In this document: positions 29,001-37,792 of the stretch, in pieces | Numbering within the stretch: position 1 is the first letter of the stretch | Layout of the letters: the number at the start of each line of letters is the position of its first letter | Notes under the pieces: model-generated | Told to the model about the DNA's origin: nothing | Database searches by the model: none | Seen by the model: the letters and a program-made list of their open reading frames with translations, nothing else | Program-made: the position numbers and the translations under genes | Assembly: GCA_049840735.1 (NCBI GenBank) | Contig: JASGJN010000020.1 | Coordinates: forward strand, 512,001-576,000 | DNA: 64,000 bases | Origin: Anaeromyxobacter sp. | GTDB taxonomy: Bacteria > Myxococcota > Myxococcia > Myxococcales > Anaeromyxobacteraceae | Direction: 5' to 3'

Positions 29001-30657
29001 GTGCCCTCCCGCCGCGCCGCCCTCCTGCTCCTCGTCCTCGCCGCCTGCAACGGCGGGTCGGAGCCCCTCCCCGACGCGCCGGACGTGGTCTACGAGGAGC
29101 AGCTGCCGGTGGCCGAGCCGCCTACCGACCGCGGCGCGGAGTGGTGGCGAGACGCCGTCTTCTACGAGGTCTTCGTCCGCTCCTACCAGGACTCGGACGG
29201 CGACGGCCACGGCGACCTGCCCGGCCTCACCTCGCGGCTCGACCACCTCCAGGCACTGGGCGTGAACGCACTCTGGCTCATGCCCATCACCGAGAGCCCG
29301 TACCGCGAGAGCGGCTACGAGGTGAAGGACCACCGGGCCGTGGAGGACTCCTACGGCACCCTGGCCGACTTCCAGCACCTGCTCGACGAGGCCCACGCGC
29401 GCGGGATCCGCGTCATCATCGACTACGTCGGCAACCACACGCACACCAGCCACCCGTTCTTCCAGGACGCCCTGGCGCGCCAGCACGGCGGCTACCACGA
29501 CTGGTACGTGTGGTCGGGTGACTCGCCCGGCTGGACCCGCTACTGGGACGGTGCGCCGGTCTGGCGCTACGGCCGGTTCGGCTGGTACTACGCCATCTTC
29601 TACGAGCACCTGCCCGACCTGAACTTCAAGAACCCCTCGGTGGTGGCCTACACCCGCGACAACCTGCGCTTCTGGCTCAACGCCGGGGTGGACGGCTTCA
29701 GGTTCGACGCGGCCCACCTCTACGTCGAGAACGGCCCCGGCGAAGGCGAGCACGACCAGCCAGAGACGTTCGCGCTGGCCGCCGGCTTCCGCGAGCTCTT
29801 CGGCCAGTACACCGACGTCTTCAGCGTGGCCGAGGTCCCGTTCACCGGGGCGCGGTACCTGGGCGACGGCACCGACGGCTACCGCGCGGTCTTCGCCTTC
29901 GAGCTCTCCACCGCGGTCATGGAGGCGGTGCGGACGGGCCGGGCCGGGGACGTGCCCTACTTGCTGGACTGGGTGGCCACCGCGCCGGAGGGGAGCACCT
30001 TCGCCACCCTCCTCACCAACCACAATCCCTTCGCCGGCTACCGCCCCTTCACGCAGCTCGGGGGCGACCTGGGCCGGTGCAAGCTGGCCGCCGCGCTGCT
30101 GCTCACCGCGCCGGGCGTGCCGTTCATCTACTACGGCGAGGAGGTGGGCCTGGACACGCTGCCGGCCGCCCAGGCGCCCTACGAAGACGCCCGCATCCGC
30201 TCGCCCATGCAGTGGAGCCCCGGCCACGCCGCCGGCTTCACCACCGGCGCACCGTATCTGGCCATCGCCCCCGGGAGCGCCACCCGAAACGTGGAGACCG
30301 AGAACCGGCAATCCGACCTCGCTGCTGGAGCGCTACCGCACGCTGATCGCGCTGCGCCGGACCCACGCCGCGCTCCGCACCGGCGCCATCGAGCACGTCT
30401 GGGCCGACTCGTCCGGCCACCTCGCCTTCGTGCGCCAGGGCGCGGGCGAGGCGCTGCTGGTGGTGGCGGACCTGGCCGGCGCCGGCGGCACCGCCACGCT
30501 CGACCTCTCCGGCACGTCCGTCGAGGGCGGCGCCACGCCCGCGCCCGACCTGCTCGACGCCAGCTACACCGCCCCGCCGGTCACCGCCCAGAACCTCTCC
30601 ACCTACCCGGTGGCGCTGCCGCCGCTGGGCGTGCGGGTCATTCCCATGGGCCCCTGA
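29001..30657 (+). CDS. GH13 alpha-amylase-family lipoprotein; frameshift near 30318
   Basis: Lipobox LAAC; FYEVFVRSYQDSDGDGHGD, DYVGNH, DGFRFDAA, YYGEEVG, RSPMQW; removing one base gives SLLERYRTLIALRR and the C-terminal domain ending at 30657. Confidence 0.85.
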
Positions 30658-30659
30658 GG

Positions 30660-31028
30660 CTACCGCAGCGGCACCACCTCGTCCCCCTCGCCCTCCCAGT
30701 CGGCGAAGCGGGAGACCTTGCGGGCCAGCTCCGGCCAGCTGGCCGCCGAGCAGCGCTCCACCTGCTCGGCCAGGAAGGCCCGCAGCCGCTCGTAATCCCA
30801 GCCGAACACCAGCAGGAGCCCGCGCCCGACCACCACCCCCTCCGGCCCGTGCCGCTCCTGCAGCCAGCCCGGCGTGGCGGCCAGCACCTCGAAGCGCTCG
30901 CGCCCGCGCAGCCCCAGGGGGCCCACCTCCAGCACCAGCGGGACCGCGAACCGCTCCGGGTCTGGCGGCCGCCAGCGCTTCAGGTCGGGGATCTCGTCGC
31001 TGGTCAGGCTCTTGAGGCGCGCGCGCAC
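30660..31028 (-). CDS. Imm8-family immunity protein (orphan)
   Basis: Pattern PxDPERFxVxLxLxVGP...ERF...TPxWL...GRxLLLV...SWPELARKVSRFADWE matches Imm8 as I recall it; no database search was run. Confidence 0.7.
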   Translation of the reverse strand: MRARLKSLTSDEIPDLKRWRPPDPERFAVPLVLEVGPLGLRGRERFEVLAATPGWLQERHGPEGVVVGRGLLLVFGWDYERLRAFLAEQVERCSAASWPELARKVSRFADWEGEGDEVVPLR

Positions 31029-33023: not shown

Positions 33024-35223
33024 ATGACCCAGCTCACAGTCCCCCTGGACGCGTCTGCCGTGCAGGGGCTCGATCCGAAGCAAGCGGTGAAGGTCCTGCT
33101 CACCTCGCGCGGCAAGCCGGTGGCCTCGCACGCCGTGAGCTTCGAGAAGAAGCCGCAGGCCCAGGTGACCTTCCAGGTGGACGAGCGCGCCAGCGGCCTG
33201 CGCGTGCTGGTCGGCCCGGCCGAGGCCAGCGACGCCGAGCTGACCGGCCTGCAGACCATCGGCGTCGACGTCCCGCGCCGCAGGTTCGGGGGGAAGGAGC
33301 AGCTCGTGCTCCGCCATCCGCATCTCGCCCTTCTACTGGGCCTGGTGGCTGAGGTGGTGCCGGAGGTTCACCATCAGCGGCCGGCTGCTGTGCGCGGACG
33401 GGAGCCCGGTGCCGGGTGCCGTGGTCTGCGCCTACGACGTGGACGCCTGGTGGTGGTGGTGGAGCACGCAGCAGGTCGGCTGCGCGACCACCGACGCCAC
33501 CGGCTCGTTCACCTTGAGCTTCCGCTGGTGCTGCGGCTGGCTGCCGTGGTGGTGGTGGCGGCTGCGGCGCTGGACGGTGGAGCCCTGGCTGGCCCGGAAC
33601 ATCCTGGGCGCGCTCCAGCGGCAGCCCCGCATCCCGCGGCTCCCCATCCCCGAGCCGGATCCGGCGCCTGGCTTCTTCGAGCGGCTCCTCGGCGCTGCGG
33701 CCGCGGGCCCGCGCGCAGCCCCGGCCCTGCAGCCGGGCTGGGCGACGCACGCGAGCCACCCCGCCGCCGCGGCGCCCGTCGTGGCTCGCGCCGCGCGCGC
33801 CATGTTCGACCCTGCCCGGCTGGAGGCGGTGCGCGAGCGGCTGGCCGAGCTCGTGCCCGAGGTCCCGGCGCTGGCGGGCCTGCGGCTCTGGCCCTGGTGG
33901 CCGTGGCAGCCGTGGTGGGACTGCACCCCTGACATCGTGTTCCGGGCCACGCAGCAGTGCCACGGCGCGGAGCGCGTCATCGTGAGCGAGGGCCTGCAGT
34001 CGGTGCGCCGGGACATCCCCACCACGCTCGACGTCACCCTCACGGCGTCCGAAGAGGCCTGCTGCATCCCCACCGGCGACTGCGCGGAGGGGGACTGCCT
34101 GGCGCTGGCCAAGGTGTGTGGCTTCGACGCCGACGAGGTGGGCGGCAACCCCGGCGCGGCGCCGGCGCCGGCCGGCTACGCCCGCCCCAACCTGATCGCC
34201 AGCAACGGCGACGCGCCGTTCGCCGAGGTGGTGGAGATCCGCGGCACCGCGCAGTGCCTCACCGGGATTCGACTACTACAGATCCTGTTCAGCCCCGACG
34301 GCCTCACCTGGCTGCCGGTGCCCCCGGCGGCGCTCGGCACCTTCGCCCGCGAGTACTGGGACTTCGGCCTGGGCACCGACGTGGACGTCCCGTTCAGCGC
34401 GCAGGTCCCCATCGACGGGCACCACGTCTACGAGACGGTGGAGCACTACGAGGCCACCCACTCACCCGCCGACTGGGGCGGCGCCAAGGTCTGGCTGGGC
34501 ACCAACCTCGACATGATCGTCCCCTGGGTCACGAACCCCACCTTCGCCGACGGGACCTACCGCCTGAAGGTCGTCGGCTACACCGCGGCCGGCGGCGTGC
34601 TCACCAGCCAGGGCGTGCTGAAGGTGTGCGGGTCGGACGCCGACGCGCAGCTCACGGTGACCCTGGACAACCAGTCCACCTTCCCGCCGCCCGGTCCGCT
34701 CGACAACCCGTGCGGCCCCGGCACCAGCCACGCCTGCACCCGCGAGCCGGACACCGACATCGTGGACGTCCGGATCGTCCGGGCGGGCGGCGACACCGTG
34801 CCGGTCGGCGCCTGCGGAAACGTGAAGCTCGCCGCGGGAGACCAGCTCGAGGTGGACCTCGTGGCCCACGACGCGCAGGGCCACCTAGCCTCCTACTCCC
34901 TGGTCGCCACCTACGGGGAGAACCTGTCGCGCGACCTCCTGGCGCTCGGCGGTGTGCTCTCGCCGCTCGGAGGCGTCCCGGGGGTGCCCGCTGCGTCCCA
35001 GGTCGGCCCGGACTATGCCGCGGCCCGCACCGCGCCGCAGACGGCGGTCGCGCCCACCTGGACCGGCGGCGCCATCCGGCTCTCCATCCCGGCCGCGCTC
35101 GCCTTCCCCGAGACCTGCTGCTACCAGCTCGAGCTCCGGGCCTACAAGCGCACCATCGTCAGCTGCCAGGACAACAACGCCCACCAGAACCTGAGCGAGC
35201 GCAGCTTCCAGATCACGGTGTGA
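33024..35223 (+). CDS. Uncharacterised Trp- and Cys-rich protein (~730 aa) with a transthyretin/carboxypeptidase-regulatory-like segment; frameshift near 33311
   Basis: GGAGG RBS; the N-terminal frame joins AIRISPFYWAWWLRWCRRFTISGRLLCADGSPVPGA, then DVDAWWWWW, WCCGWLPWWWW, WPWWPWQPWWDC. A probable compensated indel pair lies at about 34267-34280. Confidence 0.75.
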
Positions 35224-35230
35224 GGGGGCC

Positions 35231-35521
35231 ATGACCGGGGTGACGCTGCTCATGGGCGTGCTGGCGACCTGGCGGCTCACCCACCTCGTGGTGGCGGAGG
35301 ACGGGCCATGGAACCTCGTGGCCCGCCTCCGCCTGCTGGCCGGCGCGGGCATGCTCGGCCAGCTGATGGACTGCTTCAAGTGCGCCAGCCTCTGGGTGTC
35401 GGTGCCGTTCGCGGCCTGGCTCTCGGGCGGCTGGCGCGAGGGCGGCCTCGCCTGGCTGGCGTTCTCGGGCGGAGCCATCCTGCTGGAGCGCCTCGCGCAG
35501 GCGCCCGGCGGGGACCACTGA
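35231..35521 (+). CDS. DUF1360-like small membrane protein with CxxC
   Basis: LATWRLTHLVVAEDGP...LMDCFKCASLWV; hydrophobic helices; GAGG RBS. Confidence 0.72.
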   Translation: MTGVTLLMGVLATWRLTHLVVAEDGPWNLVARLRLLAGAGMLGQLMDCFKCASLWVSVPFAAWLSGGWREGGLAWLAFSGGAILLERLAQAPGGDH

Positions 35522-35537
35522 CGCGGAGGGACGGACC

Positions 35538-35804
35538 ATGTGCTGCGGAAGCAACAGGGAGGCGGCGCGCGCCGCCGCGATGGCGGCCGGTGCGGGGCGC
35601 TCCCAGCCGGCCGGCGCGCCGGCGGGGAGCCCGGCCACCTCGGTGATCGATCGTTCGAGTACCTGGGGACCGGCGCGGTGACGATCACCGGACCGGTGAG
35701 CGGGCGGGCCTACCGGTTCGCCGGGACCGGCGACCGCGTGCGGGTCGACGCGCGGGACCGCCCCGGGCTGGCAGGACTGGGCACGCTGCGCTGGCTGCGC
35801 GTAG
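35538..35804 (+). CDS. Small MCCG-start protein; frameshift near 35650, stop inferred
   Basis: GGAGGG RBS then ATG TGC TGC GGA (MCCGSNR); a shifted frame gives FEYLGTGAVTITGPVSGRAYRF...VDARDR...LRWLR. Missed as a unit by the ORF track. Confidence 0.6.
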
Positions 35805-35860
35805 ACGACCGTGCGCGGTTCGGGATCAGCTACGCTGTCCCGAACCGCGACGGCCGTCTA
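35802..35860. repeat. Long imperfect inverted repeat (terminator or REP/MITE-like)
   Basis: TAGACG.CCGT.CGCGGTTCGGGA.CAGC-TAC-GCTG.TCCCGAACCGCG.ACGG.CGTCTA. Confidence 0.6.
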
Positions 35861-36083
35861 GCAGATCGCACCGGGGGCTGCGCCCCCGCCCCGCCGGCGG
35901 AGCCGTCCGGGCCCCACCCCTGCTGCGCTGGGTCCCGCCGCGCTGCGGGCCGGATCATCCAGACAGTGGACTGGGCCCTTGCGCGGCACCCAGCGTCGAG
36001 GGGCTGCGCCCCTCCCCCAGCTGCGCTGGGGCCCCCACCCTGCCACGTGCCTCCGATTCACGACCGCTCGTCCAGCCGGGCCC

Positions 36084-37686
36084 TCAGGCGCCGGAAGTCG
36101 AGGTCGCCGCCGGGGTGGCGGACGAGGCCTGGAGCCGGCGCGCCTCGGCGCTGATGGCCGGGAAGGTCCGCCCGCCGGCGACCGCGGCGGTGCAGGCCAC
36201 GCCGCCCATGAGCGCGCCCACGATCCCCAACACGGCGGCATCCGCGCCGGTCAGGAAGAGCCCGGGCACGGGCGTGCGCGGCTGGAGCCAGCGCTGCCGG
36301 AACCGCTCCGGCGTGCCCGGCAGCCCGTAGAATCTCGCCGCCCGGGTGCGCGGTGAACCCCTCGCTGGAGAGCGGCGTGGAGAGCTCCTGGTGGACCACC
36401 AGCCCGCGCAGCCCGGGGAGCCGCGCCTCGGCGGCGGCCAGCAGCGCCTCCGCGATCCTGGCCTTCTGGGCCTCGTACTCGGCCCCGCGCCTCTTCCAGG
36501 CGGAGCCCGCCCAGCGCGCGAAGGCGGCGCCGTCCACGCTGGTGATGAGCTCGGCGGTGTGGGCCCGGGCGGCCGGGTCCTTCATGGAGGGGAAGGACAG
36601 GTAGCACTGCGGCACGCGCCCCTCCAGCACGCCGCTGCGGTCCGCCCAGGCCGCGTCGTGGTCGAGCCCCTGGTGCAGCCAGAAGTTCTCGCCCCGCACG
36701 CCCAGCTCGGCCGGAGAGCGCGACAGCCCGAGGTAGAGCGTCACCGCGGCCATGCTGGGCGGGAAGGCGCGCAGGGTCTCGCGGAAGGGGATGGGCACCT
36801 CGTCGCCCAGCAGCCGGAGGAAGGTGTTGCGCGCGCCGGCGTCGGAGATGACCACCGGCGCCCGGACCTCCTCGCCCGCCGCGAGCCTGACGCCCACGGC
36901 GCGCCCGCCCTCCACCAGGATGCGCGCCACCTCGGCGCGGACGCGGACCTCCCCGCCCGCCGCCTCGATCACCCTGCGCGCGCCGTCCGCCAGCGAGGCC
37001 GCGGAGCCCTCCGGGTAGGCCGCGCCCTCCAGGTAGTGCTGCGCGATCACCGCCTGCATCAGGAAGGCCCCCTGCCCCGGCGGCAGCCCGTGATCGCCCC
37101 AGCGCGCCCCCAGCACCGCCCGCAGCCGCGGGTCGCGGACGTGCGCGGCCAGCCAGTCGCCGGTGGTCTGCAGCGCCAGCCGCTCGCGCCCGGCCAGCAG
37201 CCACCCCACCGCCGCCGCCACCGGCCGCGGCGCGGCGCTGCGGAGGATGGGCAGCGCCATGACCGCCTGGACCTTGCGCACGTCGCTGAACCAGCGGTCG
37301 ATGGCCTTCCGCTCGGCCGGGAAGGCCGCGACCAGGTCGTCGCGCTGGTTCCGCGCGCCAGCCCGGTAGGTGAACTCGAAGCCCGGGAAGACCAGCCGGT
37401 CGAACCCCTCCGGCATGGGGTTCCAGCGGACCGTGCCGCCCGTGACCACCGCCATGGCGTCGCGGGGCATGCCCGGCTCCAGCATGCCACCCACGTAGTG
37501 GAGCCCCACGTCCCAGCGGAAGCCGCCCGGGCGCTCGAAGGTGTGCGTGAAGCCCCCTGCCCGCCAGTGGCGCTCCAGCACCAGCACCCGGCGCCCGTGC
37601 AGCCGCGCCAGCAGCGCCGCCGCGGCCAGCCCGCCCATCCCCGACCCGATCACCACCGCGTCCCAGCCGCCGCTCGCCTGAGCCAT
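36084..37686 (-). CDS. Phytoene-desaturase/retinol-saturase-family FAD oxidoreductase; frameshift near 36332
   Basis: DAVVIGSGMGGL, AGGFTHTF...WDVGLHYVG, ELSTPLS; removing one base gives YGLPGTPERF...TPVPGLFLTGAD. Confidence 0.85.
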
Positions 37687-37792
37687 CACCGCTCCCCGCC
37701 GGGCGCCGCGCGCCCGAGCCTGCAGTCATCATGCCTCGTCGCGGCCGCGCCCGCTCGGCCCGCGCTGCCGGCGACCTGGCCGGCGGCGCCGG

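Follow-up and report, generated by a model that had tools for sequence, protein, structure and literature searches.

Why would a bacterium encode a large cysteine-rich protein without a signal peptide directly ahead of a small membrane protein bearing a CxxC motif and a still smaller protein that begins with two cysteines? This arrangement occurs in Anaeromyxobacter sp., in a stretch of 64,000 nucleotides (contig JASGJN010000020.1, positions 512,001 to 576,000; hereafter, the window), where three co-directional genes occupy 33024-35223, 35231-35521, and 35538-35804 of the + strand. An earlier note, made from the sequence alone, had pointed out the trio and its ribosome binding sites and had suggested that it is one system, for example a self-assembling coat or inclusion, cross-linked by disulfides or metal, with a membrane redox partner, or else a metal-binding system. 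We confirmed the trio, with a Shine-Dalgarno-like motif ahead of each start, and our results support part of that interpretation. The reading we favor, to which we give a probability of roughly 45%, is that genes 2 and 3 form a cytoplasm-side thiol-oxidation or cross-linking pair serving gene 1, whose product would be a disulfide-locked structural protein. The features are as follows:

33024..35223, + strand: gene 1, ~732 aa, with apparent assembly indels that break it near 33312 and at ~34270-34285
35231..35521, + strand: gene 2, 96 aa, three predicted transmembrane (TM) helices, DUF1360/phrog_781 family
35538..35804, + strand: gene 3, ~88 aa, broken near 35650 and at the stop
35805..35857, + strand: long hairpin directly 3' of gene 3, a possible terminator or transcript stabilizer; U-tract absent

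Linkage of the three genes

Relatives of gene 1 numbered 646 among 8000 scored candidates (288 cluster representatives), the complete ones mostly 700 to 790 aa long, and the protein is carried by many soil and sludge bacteria. Judging by host names, with phyla assigned from general knowledge, these presumably include Gemmatimonadota, Acidobacteriota, Chloroflexota, Verrucomicrobiota, Proteobacteria, and Solirubrobacterales metagenome-assembled genomes (MAGs). Gene 1 is accessory, because a search of 16 genomes of the same family, 9 of them from the same genus, did not find it.

From 47 gene-1 loci, we dropped 9 with less than 700 nt of downstream DNA (L001, L017, L022, L028, L032, L040, L043, L048, and L049). 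Genes 2 and 3 both adjoin gene 1 in 33 of the 38 informative loci that remain, twice in the order gene 2-gene 3-gene 1; in one further locus gene 3 is present without gene 2, and both genes are missing from four others, three of which have less than 600 nt of upstream DNA. The 38 loci are not independent events, since several are kin. No conserved fourth gene stands beside the trio, beyond what is shared by ancestry within the Gemmatimonadota. That the three genes constitute one conserved unit, as the earlier note had proposed, is well supported by this co-occurrence.

A single locus bears on the idea that the gene-1 protein is cargo or an accessory of an extracellular contractile injection system (eCIS). 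In an Anaerolinea MAG (L006:2818-6997), gene 1 lies directly upstream of Pvc16, sheath, and tube genes, and its product is signal-less, as is typical of injection-system cargo; however, by inspection this linkage occurs in only 1 of the 47 loci, and Pvc16 is present in 8 of 25 gene-1 genomes and absent from the source genome (G000, 94% complete). With no consistent linkage to sheath, tube, or Pvc16 genes, we rejected the connection and consider an eCIS role extremely improbable.

Two cultured isolates carry plasmid copies. Plasmid p2 of Burkholderia sp. FERM BP-3421, a cultured soil isolate, has an intact trio with a member of the gene-1 family (E = 1e-43) beside an IS3 transposase gene, and the large protein of the R. 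solanacearum PSI07 plasmid module belongs to a second family (P0308) described below. A tblastn search of plasmids with P0002, an intact gene-1 homologue, gave no match, which reflects a limit of sensitivity, because a distant plasmid member was later found via gene 2. The plasmid genes have no entry in one supplement of PMC10589681. We also noted a database protein (P0254) that fuses a gene-3-like start to the gene-1 N terminus; it is probably a frameshift artifact in a gene 3-gene 1 locus.

In the window itself, genes 1 and 3 are fragmented among open reading frames (ORFs), as had been remarked, and the frame changes could be mapped. Residues 1-96 and 99-734 of P0002 align in different frames on the two sides of a change near 33312, where identity is 76% and 72%, respectively; in a short stretch near 34270-34285, a conserved DYY motif is readable in another frame. 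In gene 3, the frame shifts near 35650, and the stop codon (~35801-35804) is not in frame. These breaks are likely assembly errors, because homologues are intact across them and two neighboring window genes look similarly split: an alpha-amylase-family gene (29001-30657) and an FAD oxidoreductase gene (36058-37689), whose apparent frame changes suggest an indel-prone assembly.

The long hairpin ascribed to the end of the cassette is real (35805-35857; region z = -4.1), but no U-tract was found there on the + strand. Two look-alike sequences occur at other sites of the genome, and the DNA past the hairpin (~35872-36043) is a dispersed genomic repeat; therefore, this part is not specific to the cassette. 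The repeat (35872-36043) is palindromic and ~170 bp long, with dozens of copies dispersed over many contigs of the source genome. We found neither a sigma-70 site in the window stretch nor a shared promoter motif upstream of the 38 gene-1 loci. Farther upstream, an orphan gene of the Imm8 immunity family (30660-31028; PF15586, E = 3.7e-31) directly follows prfC.

Paired cysteines in the gene-1 protein

The repaired gene 1 encodes ~732 aa, close to the ~730 aa estimated earlier, with about 21 cysteines and 31 tryptophans and no signal peptide; the Trp clusters, CC pairs, and (TGG)5 tract at 33448-33462 that first drew attention are all present. Its C-terminal part alone has 30 Trp and 21 Cys in 634 aa and exceeds the background of five neighboring window genes (1.1 to 2.9% Trp and 0.5 to 2.2% Cys). 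Across 161 full-length homologues (mean, 2.8% Cys and 4.1% Trp), the Trp clusters are conserved, as had been expected of them, and none of the 161 has a signal-like N terminus, TM stretch, or twin-arginine (Tat) pattern, as judged by hydrophobicity windows and a Tat pattern, a simple proxy and not SignalP.

An AlphaFold model of P0002 (pLDDT, 85.9; pTM, 0.62) has four β-sandwich domains, at residues ~1-101, 113-343 (prealbumin-like, with a helical/Pro-rich insert), 356-550, and 574-734. Allowing for a long insert, residues 116-343 align to a single 82-residue sandwich (Z, 7.1; root mean square deviation [rmsd], 2.4), and single domains resemble Ig/CBM β-sandwiches (VIA Z up to 8.8; rmsd, 2.2 over 92 residues). 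The PF13620 (CarboxypepD_reg) profile scores 21.1 bits, under its 32.3 cutoff. Foldseek gave generic β-sandwich rows only and no match to the whole protein (TMq up to 0.18), the PDB gave no sequence match at E up to 1, and the ESM Atlas gave unnamed clusters only, except for a TTR-52 lead at 45% of members. We rejected a viral origin of gene 1, which has no PHROG match and no relative in viral contigs.

The cysteines come and go in pairs. Among the 161 homologues, Cys136 and Cys154 are both present in 134, both absent in 27, and never single; the corresponding counts are 156, 4, and 0 for the pair 312/346; 140, 10, and 1 for 564/572; and 154, 5, and 2 for 124/347. A gained pair, 147/324, has both cysteines in 17 sequences and a single one in 2, and 39 sequences have Trp-Trp at these positions. 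On a tree from which these columns had been excluded, 136 and 154 each change 13 times, always jointly (13/13); for the control pair 136/701 (13 + 8 changes), 16 joint changes are needed on the tree. The model's secondary structure places 136 and 154 opposite each other across a hairpin. It is well supported that this variation has the pattern of structural disulfides, the bonds themselves being putative. Only 29% of homologues have an even number of cysteines, and a free thiol is therefore often left.

This pairing also bears on the proposal of a metal-binding or detoxification unit, in which thiols of the three proteins chelate or pass on a metal or metalloid. The CC and CxxC motifs of the trio are common metal ligands. 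However, the gene-1 cysteines vary as distant pairs, which include a cross-strand pair and a swap of Trp-Trp for Cys-Cys, and no metal resistance or transport gene recurs among the neighbors. Because the cysteines covary as pairs, we favor disulfides over metal binding in gene 1; of the earlier suggestions, we retain disulfides and consider a metal-binding unit very improbable. As for the tryptophans, in the model their runs flank the strand ends of the 113-343 domain and so probably gather at one pole.

The small membrane protein and its dithiol neighbor

Gene 2 had been called DUF1360-like, with a CxxC beside TM helices, and it is. All 47 of its homologues match the DUF1360 profile (PF07098) at E up to 1 (best E, 2.3e-8); the nearest homologue scores 25.3 bits against a cutoff of 21, and the window's own copy, at 18.4, falls below it. 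Like DUF1360 proteins, it is a small membrane protein with a conserved CxxC before a TM helix. The model has helices at residues 3-21, 27-37, 41-47, 49-64, and 68-89, three of them long and predicted to be TM, and the second TM helix begins at the CxxC (C48-C51; CFKC in the window). Nine residues are invariant in the 47 sequences (W14, R15, E23, G25, P26, R34, C48, F49, and C51); the invariant CxxC accords with the membrane redox-type partner envisaged in the earlier note, any redox activity being putative. Lysine-plus-arginine bias predicts that the CxxC loop lies inside in 49 of 54 scored sequences; three others, in which the anchor motif could not be located, were left out, and two of four negatives were slicing artifacts.

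Neither the DsbB nor the VKOR family is among the six Pfam families matched by the 47 gene-2 members. A fold search gave generic helical rows only (best Z, 6.5), and the fact that VKOR and DsbB are not among them excludes nothing. We found no second catalytic cysteine pair in the chain, in which only C48 and C51 are conserved; the CC of gene 3 could supply one in trans.

Gene 3 has the MCCG start and the FEYLG...GPVSGRAYRF...VDARD segments reported before. It consists of an invariant N-terminal CC, a variable linker, and a small β-rich domain of ~50 aa. C2, C3, and Y58 do not vary among 57 sequences chosen partly on the MCC start; one relative (L065) has a single cysteine. Gene 3 has no match in Pfam, NCBIfam, or PDB, and none by tblastn over 50,697 phages; instead of a thioredoxin fold with CxxC, it has a vicinal CC at the N terminus.

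According to the favored reading, gene 1 would fold in the cytoplasm, because signal peptide, TM segment, and Tat motif are missing, and its cysteines would form ~9 to 10 disulfides, often with one thiol left free, in the pairing shown by covariation. Gene 3 would engage it through the β-domain and exchange thiols through its N-terminal CC, and the gene-2 CxxC would then reoxidize gene 3 and pass electrons to a membrane acceptor such as quinone, in the manner of an inverted, nonhomologous DsbB/VKOR. The oxidized protein might pack via its Trp-rich pole into a stable assembly that is kept near the membrane or released on lysis. The pair would speed or direct oxidation and would not be essential to it. 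The final role of the gene-1 protein is the weakest step, for which a cross-linked structural assembly is our best guess.

The same motifs could serve without catalysis. In a tether or staple, the gene-2 CxxC and gene-3 CC would bind one zinc or form fixed disulfides and thereby anchor the gene-1 assembly to the membrane; in a variant, gene 3 would be a structural cross-linker like the linking proteins of phage Milano, of which LP1, according to passages of PMC10491603, consists of an N-terminal Cys strand plus a β-domain and cross-links capsid proteins. That exactly four cysteines are invariant across the two small proteins, that most gene-1 proteins have an odd cysteine count, and that phage relatives of gene 2 adjoin the portal gene (see below) are all consistent with such a device. 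However, the polar membrane residues R15, H18, E23, and D47 are kept in gene 2, which suggests chemistry, and ~10 disulfides in a signal-less protein would be left unexplained. We regard a tether as unlikely.

The pair in other settings and in comparison with known systems

Another genome (G209) has a second gene 2-gene 3 pair, located behind a different 776-aa protein (P0308) that resembles the C-terminal half of gene 1 (hhalign, 95). The P0308 family (2264 matches) has paired cysteines, no signal-like N terminus in 116 sequences, and only 1.6% Trp. Since a family with so little Trp has the same genes 2 and 3, Trp is not the core of the module, and the Trp runs are specific to the gene-1 family. 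The earlier interpretation stands as to one system with conserved Trp and Cys. Two B12-binding radical SAM genes, one with a weak PqqD match, converge on the G209 module (L066:4848-9424).

Among 400 sampled genomes of the G209 phylum, in which only 12 candidates were scored per genome, there were 10 new gene-2 loci, all with gene 3. In eight, the pair follows a signal-less protein of 590 to 805 aa with 1.7 to 4.8% Cys; in the other two, it lies behind a CHAT gene or at a contig edge. Six of the eight large proteins match gene-1 or P0308/P0309 queries directly, L091 and L097 weakly (E, ~3e-4); the large protein of L096 is linked only through a C-terminal alignment by eye. It is well supported that the DUF1360-CC pair is portable.

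These large proteins belong to a superfamily of 500- to 850-aa β-proteins that have gene 1's two C-terminal domains in common and differ in their N-terminal halves (L066:1955-4285, L091, L093, L095-L098, L131-L139, L143-L146, L069, and L150). Most are signal-less, a few have signal-like N termini, and P0308 has no Pfam family. TPR-CHAT protease genes flank L029, L038, L039, L098, L099, L135, and L017, and by eye some of these loci have sigma-like and anti-sigma-like neighbors.

Relatives of gene 2 also occur in 50 phage records. In the three examined (Rosebush, Baddon, and a Microbacterium phage), the gene lies directly before the portal gene; hhalign gives 93.8 for gene 2 against Rosebush gp11 and 96.7 against Baddon gp11. 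The Rosebush and Baddon head modules have small proteins with an N-terminal CxC ahead of the capsid gene. In Agrobacterium phage Milano (bases 1-50000 of 68531 scanned), the virion of which has a disulfide network, a small membrane CPCC gene (gp4) and then a basic peptide with an N-terminal CxC (gp5) precede terminase and portal (L078:3913-4287). DUF1360 genes were also seen in the terminase-portal regions of phages or prophages from uncultured hosts (L068:5611-6030, L070, and L071). Two works of 2026 state a gap, no catalyst being named for phage virion disulfides: the preprint on mycobacteriophage Jabs counts ~1,700 virion disulfides and leaves their catalyst as an open question, and PMC13576161 calls dedicated thiol-oxidoreductase machinery undescribed in phages. 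The terms oxidoreductase, thioredoxin, and Dsb are absent from the passages seen of two Milano papers.

The superfamily and the phage loci also bear on the idea that gene 2 is a holin-like pore that frees the signal-less gene-1 protein, whose disulfides form after release; gene 1 would then act outside the cell as an adhesin, matrix protein, or antagonist and bind via its Trp pole. A small three-TM protein and Ig/CBM-like sandwiches (best Z, 8.8) suit this idea, some relatives have signal-like N termini, so that the fold can work outside, and of 70 loci searched, 4 have CHAT protease genes at their flank, as does L098. However, a holin needs no invariant CxxC, the phage relatives lie by the portal and not by lysis genes in the three records examined, and no wall hydrolase is conserved beside the trio. 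We consider this quite improbable.

Several observations weigh against the thiol-oxidation reading. Gene-1 proteins of L005, L006, L030, and L034 keep 19 to 21 cysteines without genes 2 or 3 nearby. L130 also lacks them nearby, and signal-less relatives (L130-L134, L136, L139, L143, L144, L146, and L069) have neither gene in the stretch read, even with broader profiles. Because many large proteins occur without the pair, the pair depends on its client far more than the reverse, and such proteins must rely on air oxidation after lysis or another route; the Jabs authors suggest that virion disulfides may form in air after lysis. The pair in L099 follows a CHAT gene and not a Cys protein. The three superfamily members with signal-like N termini all lack the pair, which fits the model, but they are too few to test it. 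Gene 2 has one CxxC, three helices, and no VKOR or DsbB sequence match, and the predicted cytoplasmic face of its CxxC comes from a charge count in a long loop that is also acidic. Beyond the motif, gene 3 shares no homology with the phage CxC peptides (hhalign probabilities of 2.5, 0.1, and 0.9 for MxCxC peptides, against single sequences); Milano gp4 is not a DUF1360 protein, and neither gp4 nor gp5 is homologous to genes 2 and 3.

On the other side are the linkage (33/38), the strict cysteine pairing, the lack of signals in both families (0/161 and 0/116), and the invariant CxxC predicted to lie inside; gene 3 at 10 of 10 new gene-2 loci, 8 of them behind a large signal-less, Cys-bearing protein; and gene-2 relatives before phage portals, CxC proteins in Rosebush and Baddon heads, and signal-bearing members (n = 3) without the pair.

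A broader proposal, which we offer as tentative and somewhat doubtful, is that a DUF1360 protein and a protein with an N-terminal dithiol together make up a minimal and portable machine that faces the cytoplasm, forms disulfides, and is unrelated to Dsb, VKOR, or Erv. In bacteria it would lock the signal-less β-sandwich proteins of a large, undescribed superfamily; in phages it would serve disulfide-stapled virions, and in Bacillus perhaps the spore crust. B. subtilis YjcA is, we take it, a DUF1360 family member. Its gene, yjcA (BSU11790), has the locus number next to that of cotV (BSU11780) and appears in passages of PMC517825 as a sigma-E sporulation gene. Searches for literature on a spore crust with an oxidoreductase, or on the cassette motif strings, found nothing, and no characterized member of any of the three proteins turned up in the libraries and literature searched, in line with the earlier remark that no function is assigned; most subscription journals lay outside these searches.

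If the proposal is true, the gene-1 protein would represent a new kind of covalently cross-linked assembly, intracellular or released on lysis, and the pair a new route to cytoplasmic disulfides that is useful for protein production. The same DUF1360 family as in the phages here adjoins a soluble client whose sequence reveals how its cysteines pair, which makes the oxidase idea testable with three genes in E. coli. Even if it is false, a widespread, unannotated superfamily of disulfide-paired, signal-less proteins has been defined (two families, 646 and 2264 matches).

How does the cassette compare with known systems? Gene 2 is homologous to DUF1360 (PF07098)/phrog_781, a family without an assigned function that includes membrane proteins of mycobacteriophage cluster B and Gordonia phages; it differs in its chromosomal location and in its partners, a CC protein together with a large and soluble Cys protein instead of a phage head module. 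The single domains of gene 1 share a generic fold with prealbumin/CarboxypepD_reg and Ig/CBM arrays of adhesins and S-layers, whereas the protein has no whole-length match and no signal peptide; a signal peptide or TM anchor, as expected of an S-layer or Sec-exported adhesin, was found in none of the homologues by the simple proxy (0/161). Like proteins of the Milano and Jabs virions, gene 1 would be a cytoplasm-built, β-rich protein locked by many disulfides, but it is not a virion protein, and Milano gp4 and gp5 are analogues only.

The poxvirus pathway for disulfide formation comprises E10, A2.5, and G4. Passages of PMC13576161 describe cytoplasmic thiol oxidoreductase pathways in poxvirus and mimivirus, and the logic of dedicated genes making disulfides in proteins assembled in the reducing cytoplasm is alike; the system here, in contrast, is bacterial and membrane embedded, and genes 2 and 3 match neither the Erv/ALR nor the thioredoxin family. 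The cassette resembles DsbA-DsbB and bacterial VKOR in combining a membrane protein that has a CxxC at a helix N terminus with a soluble dithiol partner of small size and a client rich in disulfides. The differences are that genes 2 and 3 have no sequence match to these proteins, that gene 2 has three helices and one CxxC, predicted to be on the cytoplasmic face, that the partner has no thioredoxin fold, and that a dedicated client lies in the operon. Inverted VKOR and DsbB are used in CyDisCo, as described in passages of PMC5471842. The cassette stands outside the DsbB/VKOR and thioredoxin families yet, if the favored reading holds, works like an inverted Dsb relay.

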